Source: Candidatus Hermodarchaeum yapensis
Lineage (GTDB): Archaea > Asgardarchaeota > Hermodarchaeia > Hermodarchaeales > Hermodarchaeaceae
Assembly (NCBI GenBank): GCA_016840405.1
Contig: JAEOSK010000016.1
Span: 1 to 60,601, forward strand
Length of the DNA stretch: 60,601 nucleotides
Direction: 5' to 3'
Position numbers and translations under genes: made by a program
Shown here: piece by piece, positions 21,752 through 49,715 of the stretch
How positions within the stretch are numbered: the stretch's first letter is position 1
Layout: each line of letters begins with the position of its first letter
The notes under the pieces: generated by a model
Database searches by the model: none
Told to the model about the DNA's origin: nothing
What the model saw: only the letters and a program-made list of their open reading frames with translations

Positions 21752-24715
21752 TTACCGTGAGAGAATTTTTACACGTCCTGAGGACTCTTCATCGCGTTCA
21801 GATTTTGGTGCTAGTGCTTCACGGAGGACGACTCCTGTGAATGACTTCTGCTCTTGAGCGACCTGTTCGGGTGTTCCGTGAGCTACTACGTACCCACCTT
21901 GATCTCCACCCTCTGGACCTAGATCGATGATGTAATCTGCCCCCTTGATTACATCAGGTTGATGTTCGATCACAATTACCGTGTTGCCAGCGTCAACCAG
22001 ATGGTTAAGCACGTCTAATAGCTTCTGCACGTCAGCAAGATGTAATCCTGTTGTAGGTTCGTCAAGGATGTAGAGGGTCTGAGTGGTGCTCCGTTTACCT
22101 AGCTCACGACTCAGTTTGATACGCTGAGCTTCACCTCCACTCAGGGTGGGTGAGGGTTGCCCCAATTCCATGTAACCTAACCCTACAGCTTGCAATGTTC
22201 CGAGGATTCGGGCAATTTTGGGAATGTTTTCAAAGAATTCCGCAGCTTCGTCCACAGTCATGCGGAGGATTTCATAGATTGTTTTGCCTTTGTACCGGAC
22301 TTGGAGTGTTTCTTTATTGAAACGTTTTCCGTTACATTCATCACAGACTACATAGACATCGGGGAGAAATTGCATTTCGATGCGAATAACTCCAGCACCG
22401 CGACAGGCTTCGCATCGTCCACCTTTCACGTTGAAACTAAACCGCCCTGGTTTATACCCACGTTTTCGAGCTTCCTGTGTCAACGAAAAGAGTTGACGAA
22501 TTGGATCGAAGACTTTCGTGTAAGTTGCTGGATTGGATCGAGGTGTCCGACCAATCGGGGATTGGTCCACTAGAATGACTTTATCAATCAACTCCACACC
22601 TGAGAGTGACTTGAAAGGACCTGGTTTGTGAAGCTGACTGGTGAGAATCGCGTCAGATTGACGTCGACGACGTCGTCTGAACTGCCAAATTATCCCTGGA
22701 TAGAGAGTATCGGTGATGAGCGTACTTTTCCCGGAACCTGAGACCCCTGTAATGCAAATGAATGTACCTAATGGAAATGTGACGTTGATGTTCTTCAGAT
22801 TACGATGGCGTGCACCTTTTATCTGGAGACTAGCTCCATTCCCAAGTCGTCTGGTGGGTGGAACGGAAATGACTTTATCTCCACGAAGATACTGGCCCGT
22901 GATTGATTTTTGATTACCTTCAATGTCTGGAACCGTGCCCTCAGCTACCACTTGACCACCATGAATCCCTGCCCCTGGACCAAGGTCAATGACCCAATCA
23001 GCTGCCCGAATAAAACCTTCATCATGTTCTACAACGATAACCGTGTTTCCCAGATCCCTTAGTTGGAGAAGCATTGAGAGCAGCCGTTCATTATCCCGCA
23101 TATGTAGTCCAATACTGGGTTCGTCGAGGATGTAGGTCACTCCAACCAGCCGTGACCCAATTTGTGTGGCCAATCGAACTCGCTGGGCTTCTCCACCGGC
23201 AAGAGTGGCAGAGAGACGATTGAGTGTAAGGTAGTCCAGACCTACTGAAGAGAGAAATTGGAGACGCTGATTGATTTCACGAAGGGTTTGACGAGCGATA
23301 GTGGCTTCTTTTTTCGTGAGATTCAAATTCGTAAAAAATGCTAGGGTCTCATTGATGGAAAGGTCTGTAACATAATCGATGCTTCGATTCTGAATAGTAA
23401 CTGCTAGGGCTTCAGGGCGGAGCCTACGTCCTTCACAGACGGGACACGGAAGTTGGGCCATGAAGTGTGTGGTCTGTTCACGGATGAACTCTGAGCTGGT
23501 AAACTTGTAACGATGTTTCAGACCAGGAATAGCTCCCATCGTTGGTTTCTCACTTATCCATTCCCACTTCCGACCAGAGGAAGTGACGCCCCGATGTTCG
23601 AAGCGAATCTCTTCACTACCAGAACCATAGAGTAAGATATTTTGATGCTCAGGAGACAAGTCTTGGAAAGGAGTATCAAGGCTAAACCCGTAATGATTTG
23701 CGATGCTGGTAAGGCTTCGCAGACGCCAACCTTTTACTGGCAGAGCATAGGATGCGATGGCTCCTTCGAGAACTGATTTTGTGGGATCAGGGACAACGAG
23801 GTCAGGATCAACTTCGAGGGTGTATCCTAACCCCTTACAGGTTGGACACGCACCGTACGGAGAGTTGAAGCTGAAGAGTCGTGGTGCAAGGTCGGGAAAG
23901 CTGATACCACATACCGGACACCCAGCTGATTCGCTGAAGAGGTATTCTTGATCACCTTGCACATCGACGGTAACCAAGCCTTTACCGAATTCTAGAGCGG
24001 TTTCCACAGATTGCGTGAGCCGGTGCTCCACTGACGGTTTTAACACCAATCGGTCTACAATAATTTCAATGGTGTGTTGCTTGTAGCGGTCGAGTTCAAT
24101 TTCATCTTTATCGAGTCGGTGTTCTTCTCCATCTACTCGGACACGGACAAATCCCTCACCGTGTAGTTTCTTGAAAAGTGCCTTATAGGTCCCCTTACGC
24201 CCTCGTACAACGGGAGAAAGAATGCGAACGCGTTTACCTTCATCAAACTCCATAATCTGCTTGACGATGGATTGAGCTGATTGAGGTGTGATGCGTCGCC
24301 CACACTTATGACAGTGGGGGATGCCAATGCGAGCCCAAAGCAATCGCATGTAATCATAAATTTCAGTGGTGGTGCCCACTGTGGAGCGAGGATTACCTCC
24401 CGCTGACCGTTGATCAATTGAGATAGCTGGGCTTAAACCTTCAATGGAATCAACATCGGGTTTATCCATTCGCCCCAAGAACTGTCTAGCATAAGCCGAG
24501 AGGGATTCAACATAGCGACGTTGACCTTCAGCAAAGAGGGTGTCGAAGGCTAAGGAGGATTTGCCAGACCCGGAGAGTCCAGTAATGACTACGTATTTGT
24601 CCCGCGGTATTTGTACGGTGATGTTCTTCAGGTTGTGGACGCGGGCACCTTTGACTGTGATGTACTTGTCGTCGCTCACCCGTTTGTCACCTATCTTCCG
24701 CCGCTCCGATGACAC
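21752..24715 (-). CDS. uvrA: excinuclease ABC subunit A
   Basis: GARVHNLKN, two Walker A motifs, FSFN zinc fingers, LSGGEAQR. Confidence 0.98.
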
Positions 24716-45530: not shown

Positions 45531-45857
45531 ATGAGCAATGAAGAAGGTTTTTGGCGCTCAATCATTGTGGACGTTGAGCCACGCCAGAAGGAATTTCGAA
45601 TTGGTATTGATGATGAAACCCGAGTTGAAGAAGTAATTCGCACCCTTGTAACACAAGCTCGGGATGAAGGCGTGAGTGTTGATGATTGGGCGAAAGCAAA
45701 GATTGGAGATCAACGCCCAGAATTCGTTCTAATTCGAAAAGCCCCAGAACCCACCAGATTAAGCCCCGGTGCCACCTTTGGGGAATTGGAACCAAAAATC
45801 ACTGATGATGAGTTCTTCCTCTTAGATGTCGTACCAGAAGTAGGGTTCTCGTCCTAA
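45531..45857 (+). CDS. ubiquitin-like (beta-grasp) modifier with C-terminal VG-FSS
   Basis: Beta-beta-alpha pattern (IIVDV...FRIGIDDETRVEEVIRTL), FVL strand, L..GATFGEL, final strand ending EVG + 3 residues; first gene before E2. Confidence 0.7.
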   Translation: MSNEEGFWRSIIVDVEPRQKEFRIGIDDETRVEEVIRTLVTQARDEGVSVDDWAKAKIGDQRPEFVLIRKAPEPTRLSPGATFGELEPKITDDEFFLLDVVPEVGFSS

Positions 45858-45906
45858 TGAGAGAAGTCTTACTCCTTGCTAATCAGAGGATTAGGGGAAA
45901 CTTGCC

Positions 45907-46668
45907 ATGTCGCGTCCAGTATTCTCAACGGAGTTATTCAACGCTCGAGTCGAAACTCAGATTCACACGTTCTTCGATACAATGAGCAATCTGTACGGTC
46001 GAAGGGGTTGGCAACCGGACCCACCAATTCGGGAGGACACCACATGGTCAAATGCAGATTTCACTGTAGCCATTATCAGCCGATATCGTGATGGAACATA
46101 TAAACGAATACGGTTTATTATGCGAAACCTCCCTGGATATGTGCGGGAGCCTGACTCGTTAACAAGCACAAGGTCCTTACGGTATGAGCATCGATTTGTG
46201 TTCGATCTTCCCCGGGAGTATCCCCAAAACATTGGTACGATTCGACCCGCAGCAGAATTACCACTCTTTCATCCCCGGCTATCAGCGAGTGGAACTGGAC
46301 ATGCTTGCTATTCAGTTCGCGGGGAATTGGACCGCATTTTAGAGGACCTGCCATTCTTTGTGTTGTTGAAACCAGACCGTGTGGAACCGCCATCTCAATT
46401 CCAATCGGACCGAGGTCTGAATGCTGCAGCTATGGCCTGGTATGAAAAAGATACAGAGAATATCGTGAATACTCTGGACCGTCTTTGGGAAGACCGTCAT
46501 CAGACTAGCGTTATTATGACTCCATTGAAAGGGCGTGTCCGAATTCTTGATGGTGAACCTGAACCAGCTAGAACAAGTCGACGACCACCACGTATTTTGG
46601 ATGTGAAAGAACAGCGGTCTGGGACAGTACGAATTCTAGATGATTCATCTTCAAATGACGATTCTTAG
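45907..46668 (+). CDS. E2 ubiquitin-conjugating-enzyme-like protein
   Basis: FVFDLPREYP...PLFHPRL...GHAC (catalytic Cys), LNAAAMAWY; disordered tail. Confidence 0.82.
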   Translation: MSRPVFSTELFNARVETQIHTFFDTMSNLYGRRGWQPDPPIREDTTWSNADFTVAIISRYRDGTYKRIRFIMRNLPGYVREPDSLTSTRSLRYEHRFVFDLPREYPQNIGTIRPAAELPLFHPRLSASGTGHACYSVRGELDRILEDLPFFVLLKPDRVEPPSQFQSDRGLNAAAMAWYEKDTENIVNTLDRLWEDRHQTSVIMTPLKGRVRILDGEPEPARTSRRPPRILDVKEQRSGTVRILDDSSSNDDS

Positions 46669-46681
46669 GTGATTTTGCGCA

Positions 46682-46882
46682 ATGTCGGACCGTCCACCTG
46701 ATAAGGAAGAAGAGAAGGAAGAATCGGAAAAAGATGAGGAACCGACATCAAATCGCATTGTTGTATTAAATGAACGGGATATACCCTTTGAAGAAGAACG
46801 CCCACCGAATTTTTCACCACACTTTGCAGTTAAAGTGCACCGTGTGCAGAAAGACACTAGTTCGGAGGAGAATGAGAAGTGA
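46682..46882 (+). CDS. small acidic hypothetical protein in the Ubl operon
   Basis: AGGTGA SD; overlaps next gene; RIVVLNE motif. Confidence 0.55.
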   Translation: MSDRPPDKEEEKEESEKDEEPTSNRIVVLNERDIPFEEERPPNFSPHFAVKVHRVQKDTSSEENEK

Positions 46883-47265
46883 GTGTGCATGGCGCATCGC
46901 ATATGAAGTGCGTAGCCTGTGCAAACCAAGTTTCACTGGATGAAGCACGACGTGAATGGTGGATTTGTACAACATGTGGTAGCTACATGTGTCCCAACTG
47001 TCGATCATTGTTTCTTGAAACTGGACAGGGAACCTGTCCTGGCACAATCGTTCGGGGGGTTGAATCTCACCCACCCCATTTCACACGGTTCCTCGGTCCA
47101 CGAGATGAACCAGAAGTTGTGTTACCTGAAATTCGTTCAACGGTGGAAATCTTAGAAGATGTGCGACGGAATCAGCCCCGTTCACCCGGTGGTCGAGTGA
47201 TTATCCTTGATGACGATGAAGCCCTAGGCGAAGCTGACGAAGAAACGCAAGGTCAGGAGCAATGA
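46879..47265 (+). CDS. RING-like zinc-finger protein (putative E3)
   Basis: CVAC...CTTC-x4-CPNC-x11-CP...H; acidic tail with VIILDDDE. Confidence 0.7.
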   Translation: MSVHGASHMKCVACANQVSLDEARREWWICTTCGSYMCPNCRSLFLETGQGTCPGTIVRGVESHPPHFTRFLGPRDEPEVVLPEIRSTVEILEDVRRNQPRSPGGRVIILDDDEALGEADEETQGQEQ

Positions 47266-48137
47266 AAACTTCCTCCACAATTCTTTCTCACAGAGTCACC
47301 TATTCAACCAAGATTCAAAATACTTCGGATAATCCACTCTCTGGGATCCGTGTGTTTGTTGCCTTTCCACCACCCCTCCCTCCTCGCCAAGAACTCATTA
47401 ATCTGTCATCAATTCCTGTTTCGGGTCGTCAGGCCACAGATTTGAAGGGAAATCATTGGTTGGATTTGACCTGCGACCGATTAGCTGGAAAGGAAACATT
47501 CACCTGTGGTTACACTGCGTTGGTCCGGAATCGTTCCATCCATTACAGACTGCCCCAGTCTACTAGAAACTCCTCAGTACCCTCCAGCCTCGTTGGATAC
47601 ACCAAACCAGAAAACTTCATAGAATCTCACCATCACCTAATCAAAGACCTAGCCCGTGACCTTTCCAGCAAAAACCCCAATCCCATTCCATTCGTGAAAG
47701 CTGCAATGCGTGCTGTAACAAAAACAATTCGATATTCTCCTCAGAAGTATGAGCGCGGGGCTGCTTTTGCGATTGAAAAACACGTCGGAGATTGCACCGA
47801 ATTTGCTGCACTATTTACTGCCCTCTGTCGGGCGAAAGGAATTCCTGCAAGATTAGAAGCGGGATTTGCATATAATAGGAAAAAGTGGGAGCGGCATGCA
47901 TGGAGTGTAGTGTGGATTCAGGACAATTGGATTCCCGTTGATCCGACGTGGTATGGCAACAGTGGCTGGTTGGGCGTGACCAACCGTCACATTCCCCTCA
48001 TTATTGGTAACTGGATGGATATTCGTATCCACCAAGAGTTCAAAATGACATGGTCGCACAAACCACAAACAACTCCACCACAATTGGGTTCAAAATGGAA
48101 AGTCACGAAAGTTGTGAGTATCTTAAATTCAAGCTAG
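47262..48137 (+). CDS. transglutaminase-like (Cys-His-Asp) protein
   Basis: GDCTEFA...CRAKGIPAR, HAW, WIPVDPTW. Confidence 0.92.
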   Translation: MKTSSTILSHRVTYSTKIQNTSDNPLSGIRVFVAFPPPLPPRQELINLSSIPVSGRQATDLKGNHWLDLTCDRLAGKETFTCGYTALVRNRSIHYRLPQSTRNSSVPSSLVGYTKPENFIESHHHLIKDLARDLSSKNPNPIPFVKAAMRAVTKTIRYSPQKYERGAAFAIEKHVGDCTEFAALFTALCRAKGIPARLEAGFAYNRKKWERHAWSVVWIQDNWIPVDPTWYGNSGWLGVTNRHIPLIIGNWMDIRIHQEFKMTWSHKPQTTPPQLGSKWKVTKVVSILNSS

Positions 48138-49004
48138 TTATTTGTGTTTTCGTTTGTCCCGACAAAATGTCTCACTACATCGTGGGTTCACCATTATTTG
48201 ACCCGACGCAGCCTGATGTCGATTTAGGTCGTACTTGATAAACCGACCCAAAGCAGGTTCCAAACCGTCTTGCCACTGTCCCGTTTCTCGCCACTGTTTC
48301 AACCCCACAAGAACGCGAACCGCCTCCCAGGCCATTACAGCACCCACCACTGAGGTCACAAAACTAATCATAGGAAATCGCGGAACTGTGTCCACAAAGA
48401 AAGGGTCACATCGTGTCCGTACCTCATTGGCGACAACGTGGTCGACGAAGTCTTTACTCCACGAGCACACAAGACATGCTGTGTGAGGAGGCGCAAGCAC
48501 CTCAACTGAGACAAAATCCTTGCCCATCGCCCCATTAATGAGAGGATGTGGTGGATTAAAGCTGAAATTTTTCGCATTTAGGAGATAGCGTGCATAGTGA
48601 TTATCTACACCAACCAAGACCAGTTGAGTATCCCAGACAGAATCGGGCGCTTGTTGAATAGTCGCTGCGTGAGGTTCGACTACAGTGTTCGTGGCGAGTT
48701 CTGGTAACCGTTCAGCTACCGCCTCCACTTTGAATTTGGCTTCATGGTCTCCTGGGCGGAAAAAGATACAACGATTAAGATTCGATGCAGCAACTTTGTC
48801 CGGATCCACCAAGATAATTTTGCCTACGCCAAGTAATCCAAGGTTTTTACATACCTCATTTCCAACAGCACCAGCGCCTACCATGAGTACTGTAGATTGT
48901 TGGATGGTTTCGAGATTATTAGCTCCCAGCCAGCGACGAGTCCGATCGTGTTGATCTCGCTCGAAAAAACTAAGTTCAATTGGCGTGGGTGATTCCTTAG
49001 TCAT
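48138..49004 (-). CDS. E1-like ubiquitin-activating enzyme (ThiF/MoeB family)
   Basis: VGAGAVGNEVCKNL, DPDKVAASNLNR, VDN, CLVC, candidate catalytic Cys in RTRCD; ATG 49004 overlaps the JAB stop. Confidence 0.92.
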   Translation of the reverse strand: MTKESPTPIELSFFERDQHDRTRRWLGANNLETIQQSTVLMVGAGAVGNEVCKNLGLLGVGKIILVDPDKVAASNLNRCIFFRPGDHEAKFKVEAVAERLPELATNTVVEPHAATIQQAPDSVWDTQLVLVGVDNHYARYLLNAKNFSFNPPHPLINGAMGKDFVSVEVLAPPHTACLVCSWSKDFVDHVVANEVRTRCDPFFVDTVPRFPMISFVTSVVGAVMAWEAVRVLVGLKQWRETGQWQDGLEPALGRFIKYDLNRHQAASGQIMVNPRCSETFCRDKRKHK

Positions 49005-49611
49005 GAGGTTCAGCCTCCTCATCCTGTTGGGTCTCTTCAGAAGTTGGTGTGCTTTCGTCAATTGGTACAGAGGGTTGGTAAGTACACCAGTCTACCTGTT
49101 CGAGTTGAAGACCTGGTTCATCGGGTCGAGGACGAAGCATATAGACTTTGAAAATGCGACTCAACGGGTCAATGAGGAAGAAGATATTACCCTCAGCACA
49201 GAATGGTGTATTGAAGAAAGTGCGTAAATCAGTGGATGAGAACTGCGGGTCGCCACCGAATGGGTGCGAATGCCAGAGCCCTACAACGCGAGGCGTATGT
49301 GGATTAGTCCCATATCGATCATGTAATGCTAAGCGGTATTCTAGAATGCCTTCTGGTGTGAACCGAGCATACGCCATACTTGCTTCAACGCGTCCAGTGG
49401 CCCAATCAGTTACTCGGATGTAATTTTCATCTAGCCATGTACGGCGGAAGCCGAGAATCACCCCGAGCGCTTCACGCGGTGGCTGCCGTATTGCTTCCTG
49501 ATGACAAAAATTGAATATCTCATGGCAGGTCCGTTTATAGACATAAACTGGGTACACTGGTTCATCGATTAATGTATCACTGTTTACCATGGGAATATCT
49601 TGATTTGACAT
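48997..49611 (-). CDS. JAB/MPN+ (JAMM) metalloprotease
   Basis: EALGVILG, VVGLWHSHP...FSSTD, LIDP. Confidence 0.92.
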   Translation of the reverse strand: MSNQDIPMVNSDTLIDEPVYPVYVYKRTCHEIFNFCHQEAIRQPPREALGVILGFRRTWLDENYIRVTDWATGRVEASMAYARFTPEGILEYRLALHDRYGTNPHTPRVVGLWHSHPFGGDPQFSSTDLRTFFNTPFCAEGNIFFLIDPLSRIFKVYMLRPRPDEPGLQLEQVDWCTYQPSVPIDESTPTSEETQQDEEAEPHD

Positions 49612-49715
49612 GAGCCGTTCACACCATTTCACTTGATTATGAATAGTTAAATCCTAGTGATACACCCATATATTTCCAAGCAGTCTATCACAAATGGAAA
49701 GGGAGTTGGATAGCA

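Follow-up and report, generated by a model that had tools for sequence, protein, structure and literature searches.

Conserved peptides resembling SUMO-interacting motifs in the tails of three proteins of an Asgard archaeal ubiquitin-like operon

Why should three consecutive proteins of one archaeal operon carry, in six copies, what looks like the same short peptide, and what would that peptide bind? The question is raised by a contig of 60,601 nucleotides (JAEOSK010000016.1, positions 1 to 60,601, forward strand; the whole stretch is referred to here as the window) from the 2.7-Mb metagenome-assembled genome (MAG) of the Asgard archaeon Candidatus Hermodarchaeum yapensis (GCA_016840405.1). 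Five tightly packed genes on its plus strand (45531–48137) encode a ubiquitin-like protein (Ubl), an E2-like (conjugating-enzyme-like) protein, a 66-aa acidic protein, a Zn-finger protein and a transglutaminase-core protein, and the genes for a ThiF-type activating enzyme (E1) and a JAB/JAMM protease converge on this operon. An earlier reading of the DNA letters alone (the sequence-only reading) had placed the E2-like, small and Zn-finger proteins in a Ubl operon, and had likened six hydrophobic-acidic peptides in their tails to SUMO-interacting motifs (SIMs); the three do belong to a Ubl/E1/E2/JAMM system of this Asgard archaeon. Our analysis indicates that the six are conserved short linear motifs which probably share a single receptor, possibly the Ubl itself.

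All six peptides are present as originally quoted, and all are encoded on the plus strand. Three lie in the E2-like protein (253 aa, 45907–46668), predicted to combine a UBC-like core bearing HPR-x9-Cys134 with a disordered tail (residues 205–253): RVRILDGE (46534–46557, core V211–L214), PRILDVKE (46588–46611, core P228–L231) and TVRILDDS (46624–46647, core V241–L244). The small acidic protein (66 aa, 46682–46882) has one, RIVVLNERD (46754–46780, core I26–L29), followed by a conserved ERDIPFEEERPPNFSPHF-x-VKVH segment, a layout kept in 18 orthologues. The remaining two, TVEILEDV (47140–47163, core V89–L92) and RVIILDDDE (47194–47220, core V107–L110), are in the predicted disordered tail of the Zn-finger protein (128 aa, 46879–47265), which begins with a RING/U-box-like two-zinc finger (residues 8–70). 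The supposed disorder of the tails also held up, as judged by the low confidence of the AlphaFold2 (AF2) models and by the variability of the flanking sequence: the predicted local distance difference test score (pLDDT) is ~40 for E2 residues 204–253 in a model with a mean of 72.7, and, while the zinc finger is modelled at 85–92, its tail ranges from 37 to 56 (~52–56 for residues 80–110, below 50 for residues 110–128).

Could these be ordinary hydrophobic patches in charged tails, arising by chance or composition and without specific function? The core is short and loose, and [VI]x[VI][VIL] is found 4401 times in the crude proteome of the same genome (2831 open reading frames (ORFs), 821,793 aa). 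Using this proteome as the background for the 168 tail residues, and with patterns chosen after the fact, we estimate 0.00103 occurrences per residue for [VI]x[VI][VIL] with a nearby acidic residue, i.e. 0.175 expected versus 5 seen (Poisson ~1e-6), and 0.00062 per residue for [RVIE][IV]L[DEN], i.e. 0.105 expected versus 6 seen (Poisson ~1e-9). Conservation, judged from aligned orthologues, is the stronger and the decisive test. The mean frequency of the most common residue is 0.84 in motif columns versus 0.40 in the other tail columns of the E2 (26 sequences), 0.81 versus 0.46 for the Zn-finger protein (18 sequences) and 0.88 versus 0.63 for the small protein (18 sequences), and core positions 1, 3 and 4 are hydrophobic in 22–26 of 26 E2 sequences and in all 18 sequences of each of the other two proteins. 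Among the E2 motifs, these positions are hydrophobic in 26/26 sequences for the first; the I and L of the second are kept in 23/26, the motif being lost in one sub-clade; and in the third I243 is invariant and L244 is present in 26/26. Positions 1, 3 and 4 are likewise kept in 18/18 sequences for the small-protein motif and the first Zn-finger motif, and in the second Zn-finger motif all four core positions are kept in 18/18, with the preceding G105 invariant. Conservation in orthologues had been named beforehand as the check on the sequence-only reading, and it was passed: the cores form near-invariant islands in variable tails across 18–26 orthologues. Both the excess over the ~0.1 occurrences expected and this position-specific conservation argue against chance, as does the persistence of the motif across families with a flavour that shifts in concert (see below), and we regard an origin in mere composition as scarcely credible. 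On the evidence of these alignments, the six peptides qualify as genuine short linear motifs.

How far does the motif reach? The E2 family is small, amounting to 50 clusters (50% identity) in a set of 1.8 billion representative proteins; its nearest members are records labelled Hermodarchaeota or Promethearchaeota, and in a sample of 400 genomes it is found in four families of the phylum (18/18, 1/1, 2/2 and 10/12 genomes). Nearly all complete E2 tails that we read contain one to three copies of [G/K/R]-phi-x-phi-phi (phi, hydrophobic), often at the C-terminal end: the tails of the Asgard family that we call f12-like read GGIKII ... TIRIM ... GGVRII, that of the f2 family GGIVFIE, a high-GC (guanine plus cytosine) clade retains GG-V-x-I only, and the motif is also present in Ubl-E2 fusions (L078, L080, P0067 and P0074). 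Three E2 relatives, P0061, P0068 and P0077, have no tail. The small protein is present in the f12-like and f2 families and at locus L080 as well; its f12-like version reads STIKIIS...PPPNF..., and the f12-like Zn-finger protein again has two copies, STVKILP and KSIKVIES. The layout of three, one and two copies in the E2, small and Zn-finger proteins is thus common to the window family and to the distant f12-like family, whose E2s match the window-family profile with E ~1e-55 to 1e-63 (~1e-140 within the family). Across lineages the last E2 motif is followed by 0 to 12 residues, which rules out a PDZ-like recognition of the free C-terminus.

The two families differ in the flavour of the motif, V-x-I-L in the window family versus I-[KR]-I-I in the f12-like family. 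Using one regular expression that required V/I at position 1 (and therefore missed PRIL), we extracted 87 window-family cores, with L at position 4 in 81 (29/33 in the E2, 17/19 in the small protein, 35/35 in the Zn-finger protein) and V at position 1 in 62, and 58 cores from f12-like loci, with I at position 4 in 50, I at position 1 in 44 and R/K at position 2 in 57; since related genomes are not independent, these figures are to be read as counts rather than as a test. The f12-like shift is alike in the E2 and the small protein. Similarly, at L080 the E2 ends in KRKVYIVE and the next small ORF begins with KKRKVYIIEE, almost the same peptide.

A concerted change of flavour in different proteins suggests one shared, co-evolving receptor. 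A conceivable way to do without a separate receptor is for the six strands to pair with each other in an intermolecular β-sheet that zips together the E2, small and Zn-finger proteins: two distant families keep the same 3+1+2 count of strands, the strands of any one lineage are similar, and another conserved segment of the small protein (VKVH or CILH) also looks like a strand. This is, however, very unlikely, given that many E2 relatives carry just one copy, that for some of them neither a small-protein nor a Zn-finger partner could be detected, that the second E2 motif is dispensable in a sub-clade, and that the copy in UvrA, to which we now turn, is single as well.

This seventh copy, GRVKILSR, lies outside the operon at the C-terminus of UvrA (21755–21778, minus strand; gene 21752–24715), ~22 kb upstream of the Ubl operon. 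The NCBIfam UvrA model covers residues 16–968 of 987, so that the last 19 residues are an add-on ending in the motif. The motif is kept in 12/12 same-genus C-termini that we read, behind a variable linker; the sister genus has only a degenerate version (SKVIAG), and the UvrA paralogues of the f12 family have none. Of six matches to the strict form G-[RK]-[VI]-x-I-L across the proteome, three are in the E2, the Zn-finger protein and the UvrA C-terminus. Other carriers returned by the proteome scan were dropped, as they look like buried strands or, in one case, come from a doubtful 92-aa ORF in an insertion-sequence-like region (C20:1410-1688). A lineage-specific gain of the local flavour by this sensor of DNA damage would fit a docking peptide and suggests that the motif is portable; as a single short peptide, the UvrA copy is a lead, not a result.

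Could the receptor then lie outside the Ubl system? Upstream of the Ubl operon and divergent from it is an Smc5/6-like operon encoding SMC, kleisin-like, kite-like and RING-like proteins, and the linkage of the two operons recurs in distant families. With UvrA bearing the motif as well, ~22 kb from this operon, the arrangement hints at a role in repair, and docking on the neighbouring Smc5/6-like complex, on DNA-repair machinery or on an unfoldase or proteasome can be envisaged; f12-like kleisin-like proteins, moreover, end in a similar S-I-V-L-T-P-K-K. Against this, E2 tails keep the motif at L080 and L078, where no SMC operon is visible, although these loci are short and absence is not thereby shown. 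We consider an outside receptor quite unlikely. Nearly every E2 tail that we read holds the motif, which suggests that the receptor is a universal part of the system, and the persistence of the E2 motif where no Zn-finger, small-protein, transglutaminase or SMC genes are seen nearby points to a core part: the Ubl, the E1, the E2 core or the JAMM protease. That the two canonical ubiquitin-type loci of this genome have no such tails we also count in favour of docking within this Ubl system.

We therefore infer a single receptor among these core components, and favour the Ubl (108 aa, 45531–45857, plus strand), with a probability of roughly 0.45 for the whole proposal. The six peptides would be copies of one docking motif with a four-residue strand-forming core, V/I-x-I/V-L/I, usually preceded by G/S/T and R/K and, in the window family, followed by D/E; as in SIMs, the core would add a β-strand at an exposed sheet edge of the Ubl. 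Such docking could keep Ubl, free or already conjugated, near the E2 and the E3-like Zn-finger protein and so favour charging, modification in several rounds or recruitment to targets that bear the Ubl; clients tagged with the motif, UvrA for example, could enter this assembly too. We favour the Ubl because no other component would make a sensible partner for an E2, an E3-like protein, a cofactor-like protein and a client alike, and because no protein of the operon is more highly conserved (82–98% identity versus 66–95% for the E2, 16 orthologues). A further reason is that the longest Ubl block conserved family-wide, DVEPxxKxFR, is presumably the first hairpin (the secondary structure is assumed). 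Lastly, the motif conforms to the loose definition of a SIM, a class of motif that SUMO E1 and E3 enzymes are known to carry (PMC12751080).

Several observations weigh against the Ubl as receptor. The protein is strongly acidic (net charge about -10), which is awkward in combination with acidic motif flanks, and it is not a recognisable SUMO relative. The acidic flank itself is absent from the f12-like family, where P/G/S or the C-terminus follows the core, and from the high-GC clade, and when we compared the Ubl rows of the two Asgard families we saw no clear charge swap to match the change of flank. The AF2 monomer models of the E2 and the Zn-finger protein place the tails nowhere. Finally, a family-wide C-terminal peptide on an E2 fits docking to the E1 or to the E2 equally well.

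This last point leads to the main rival: that the motif binds the E1 or the β-sheet backside of the E2 core, so that the E2 tail tethers the E2 to the E1 or regulates the E2 itself, while the copies in the Zn-finger and small proteins tether or compete at the same site. Precedents exist for both: UBA5 recruits UFC1 and UFM1 via short peptides in its tail, and binding to the backside of an E2 is known from gp78, Cue1 and Rad18. The motif characterises the E2 family as such, usually 10–25 residues past the last helix and often C-terminal, and it persists at L078 and L080, where we see neither a small protein nor a Zn finger close by. Furthermore, the E1s of these systems are short ThiF-type enzymes (262–310 aa), apparently lacking a ubiquitin-fold domain for E2 recruitment; in the window E1 (307 aa, 48138–49061, minus strand; Pfam ThiF 1.4e-34, NCBIfam ThiF/MoeB/UbaA matches below cut-offs) we saw no such extra domain at this length. 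On the other hand, there is no obvious logic for three different proteins to share one E1-binding peptide, the gain of the motif by UvrA would suit a reader or client of the tag better than an E1 ligand, and the AF2 monomer left the tail undocked on the E2 core, though from a shallow alignment. Overall we judge docking to the enzymes unlikely, while taking it more seriously than any other alternative to the Ubl.

What kind of proteins would this motif connect? The model of the E2-like protein retrieves 25 matches from the PDB at E<=1e-3 with Foldseek, all of them UBC-fold E2s except 8qat_D (Fts-Hook3-FHIP1B), among them Ube2G1 and UBC9 (E ~1e-4, template modelling score ~0.5). H122, P123, R124 and C134 are invariant, Arg replacing the Asn of the HPN-type loop. 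The modelled fold, together with the HPN-type loop and the catalytic Cys, identifies the 253-aa protein as a UBC-fold E2, even though it matches no Pfam (UQ_con included), NCBIfam or PADLOC family. As for the Ubl, its look-alikes by language-model features are all β-grasp domains. None of its Pfam matches reaches the threshold, whether to a SUMO, a ubiquitin or any other family; those beneath it are to YukD (7/15 members) and to Rad60-SLD (5/15, best E 0.013), and profile searches of the Ubl and the E2 against PDB chain sequences gave nothing meaningful. The Ubl ends in an invariant PEVG followed by 0–3 variable residues, as in a pro-form. In the Zn-finger protein, C11, C14, C30, C33, C38, C41, C53, H64 and H67 are invariant (18 sequences) and spaced compatibly with a cross-brace. 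Its likeness to RING, U-box or SP-RING domains is weak: the best Foldseek E value is 0.23, and the VIA Z scores of 5.3 (U-box), 5.1 (RNF4) and 4.7 (Nse1 RING) are all below the tool's trust level of 8.

The genome also encodes a canonical ubiquitin (PF00240, 44.7 bits) and two UQ_con E2s at two other loci, and the tail motif is absent from all proteins that we read there; within this genome, the motif network belongs to the SMC-linked Ubl system only. As a side observation from sequence reading, the canonical ubiquitin lies in an ESCRT/UEV-like neighbourhood (G000:C19:22600-28320), and a UQ_con E2 (HPN-Cys) sits beside an E1 with a C-terminal ubiquitin-like domain (G000:C40:1-1500).

Are these motifs, then, SIMs? 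The strand that a SIM adds to its modifier lies in the groove between strand 2 and helix 1, and its flank can be acidic or phosphorylatable. In the loose definition a SIM has a core of four residues, three or more of them V/L/I, is frequently flanked by acidic residues and binds by β-strand addition, and SIMs are known on the enzymes and readers of the SUMO pathway itself: SAE2, PIAS, RanBP2, ZNF451 and Nse2 (PMC12751080). Five of the six window cores have at least three V/I/L (PRIL has two plus a Pro), and in their loose strand-forming core, disordered setting, multiple copies and presence on the pathway's own enzymes the archaeal motifs are alike to SIMs, as they are, in the window family, in their acidic flank (D/E at position +1 in 44/87 and at +2 in 64/87 instances). 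They differ in that the Ubl is not recognisably SUMO, in that the archaeal motif prefers a basic residue before or inside the core, and in the loss of the acidic flank in distant lineages. Of the description as SIM-like hydrophobic-acidic motifs in disordered tails, the core and the disorder thus stand, and the acidic part is confined to the window family: the motifs are SIM-like, but membership in the SIM class itself cannot be claimed.

The comparison with SUMO-targeted ubiquitin ligases (STUbLs) of the RNF4 type fares similarly. A small zinc-finger protein with tandem copies of the motif, the RING protein of the sequence-only reading, is indeed present; its two motifs, however, are C-terminal to a finger of weakly supported RING identity, whereas RNF4 has four SIMs in its N-terminal part. 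By analogy, the separate canonical ubiquitin and UQ_con E2s of the genome make a STUbL-like cross-talk between two modifiers conceivable. More distant are the cascades of Atg8 and UFM1, in which the LC3-interacting regions/Atg8-interacting motifs (LIR/AIM) of Atg3/Atg4 and the UFM1- and UFC1-binding peptides of UBA5 are tail peptides to which the modifier, or else the enzyme next in line, is docked through an added strand. Shared with these are short peptides in flexible enzyme tails and, after trimming, a Ubl ending in a single Gly, as in UFM1 and Atg8; in contrast to these, the archaeal motif is on the E2, cofactor-like and E3-like proteins and not on the E1. Membership in the LIR/AIM class, which calls for W/F/Y at core position 1 and L/I/V at position 4, is excluded, as an aromatic residue is absent from all six window motifs (position 1 is V/I in 87/87 extracted window-family and 58/58 f12-like cores, where the expression allowed nothing else). 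The closest relatives by analogy are SIMs on SUMO-pathway enzymes, followed by RNF4-type ligases and, at a further remove, by Atg8/UFM1 tail peptides. As for archaeal systems, the canonical ubiquitin operon of Caldiarchaeum and Asgard archaea comprises ubiquitin, E1, E2, a small RING protein and an Rpn11-like JAMM protease. It shares with the window the grouping of modifier, E1, E2, small zinc-finger protein and JAMM in one operon; the window differs in that its Ubl and E2 match no Pfam ubiquitin or UQ_con model, and in its additional small protein and transglutaminase-like gene. We know of no report of tail motifs in the canonical operon.

The rest of the locus can be described briefly. The last gene of the operon encodes the transglutaminase-core protein (291 aa, 47262–48137, plus strand; Pfam Transglut_core 2.8e-22), which has no motif and whose gene was not seen at the equivalent position in f12-like loci or at L078 and L080. 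The gene is ~290 codons long in the window and at L001-L003, L009, L011 and L014, and encodes 534–550 aa with an additional N-terminal domain at L004 (7379-8983), L005-L008, L010, L012, L013 and L016. The JAMM/JAB protease (211 aa, 48997–49632, minus strand; Pfam Prok-JAB 2e-08) is the presumed maturase or deconjugase of the Ubl. E1 residues ~27–45 form a strand-like segment followed by DRTRR (IELSFFERDQHDRTRR in the window, LSIGFFEEDIEDRTRR in f12-like loci) that is conserved across families. We dropped a filing of the operon with defence systems of the Bil (bacterial ISG15-like) or CBASS (cyclic oligonucleotide-based antiphage signalling system) type, given that PADLOC and NCBIfam have no family for the Ubl, E2, small or Zn-finger protein and that the E1 and JAB proteins resemble such systems only generically.

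Related loci add some observations of their own. In the natural Ubl-E2 fusions (L078:3946-4914, L080:273-1225, P0067 and P0074) the Ubl part ends in VVGG or VVGA and the E2 follows. At L080, which may be bacterial, a 942-aa protein, putatively SecA by sequence reading, is encoded after the E2 and the short small-protein-like ORF. In a few related MAGs the E2 gene has an in-frame TAG or is split into a 193-aa ORF and a 47-aa tail ORF (L002:393-1154; G099/G107), which could reflect assembly error or a broken gene. The kleisin-like proteins of f12-like loci end in S-[IL]-[VA]-[LI]-x-P-[RK]-K (L050:2508-3356, L071:1163-2014, L073:2004-2810, L074:81-950); this end resembles the second E2 tail motif of the lineage, [TA]-I-[RK]-I-I-P-[RK], and may be no more than the final strand of the kleisin winged-helix domain.

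What would such motifs mean for Asgard biology? It is through reader motifs that a covalent Ubl mark gives rise to a signalling network, and they are seen as an elaboration of eukaryotes. A full-text literature search found no paper on the tail motif or on this type of operon, nor any account of comparable motifs in the Ubl systems of archaea or bacteria. Second SMC complexes with Nse1/3-like kites have been described in Asgard archaea, with the Nse1 RING treated as a eukaryotic gain (preprint 10.1101/2024.01.07.573240). At its widest, our reading of these sequences would have Asgard archaea already possess a SUMO-style tag and reader-motif network. An E2 and a RING-like E3 would write a private Ubl for which they themselves bear reader motifs, and the system would be wired to an Smc5/6-like complex and, via UvrA, to nucleotide-excision repair, so that the SUMO/SIM logic of molecular glue in genome maintenance, perhaps with STUbL-like cross-talk, would predate eukaryotes. 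We hold this wider picture to be doubtful. Should the motifs bind the Ubl, the operon would be a compact, experimentally tractable and ancestor-like model of SUMO/SIM signalling, made of eight small parts (the seven operon proteins and the UvrA tail) adjoining an Smc5/6-like operon; should they bind the E1 or the E2, they would explain how E2s are recruited by E1s that apparently lack a ubiquitin-fold domain. Under either reading, the motif is a precise handle for mutagenesis.

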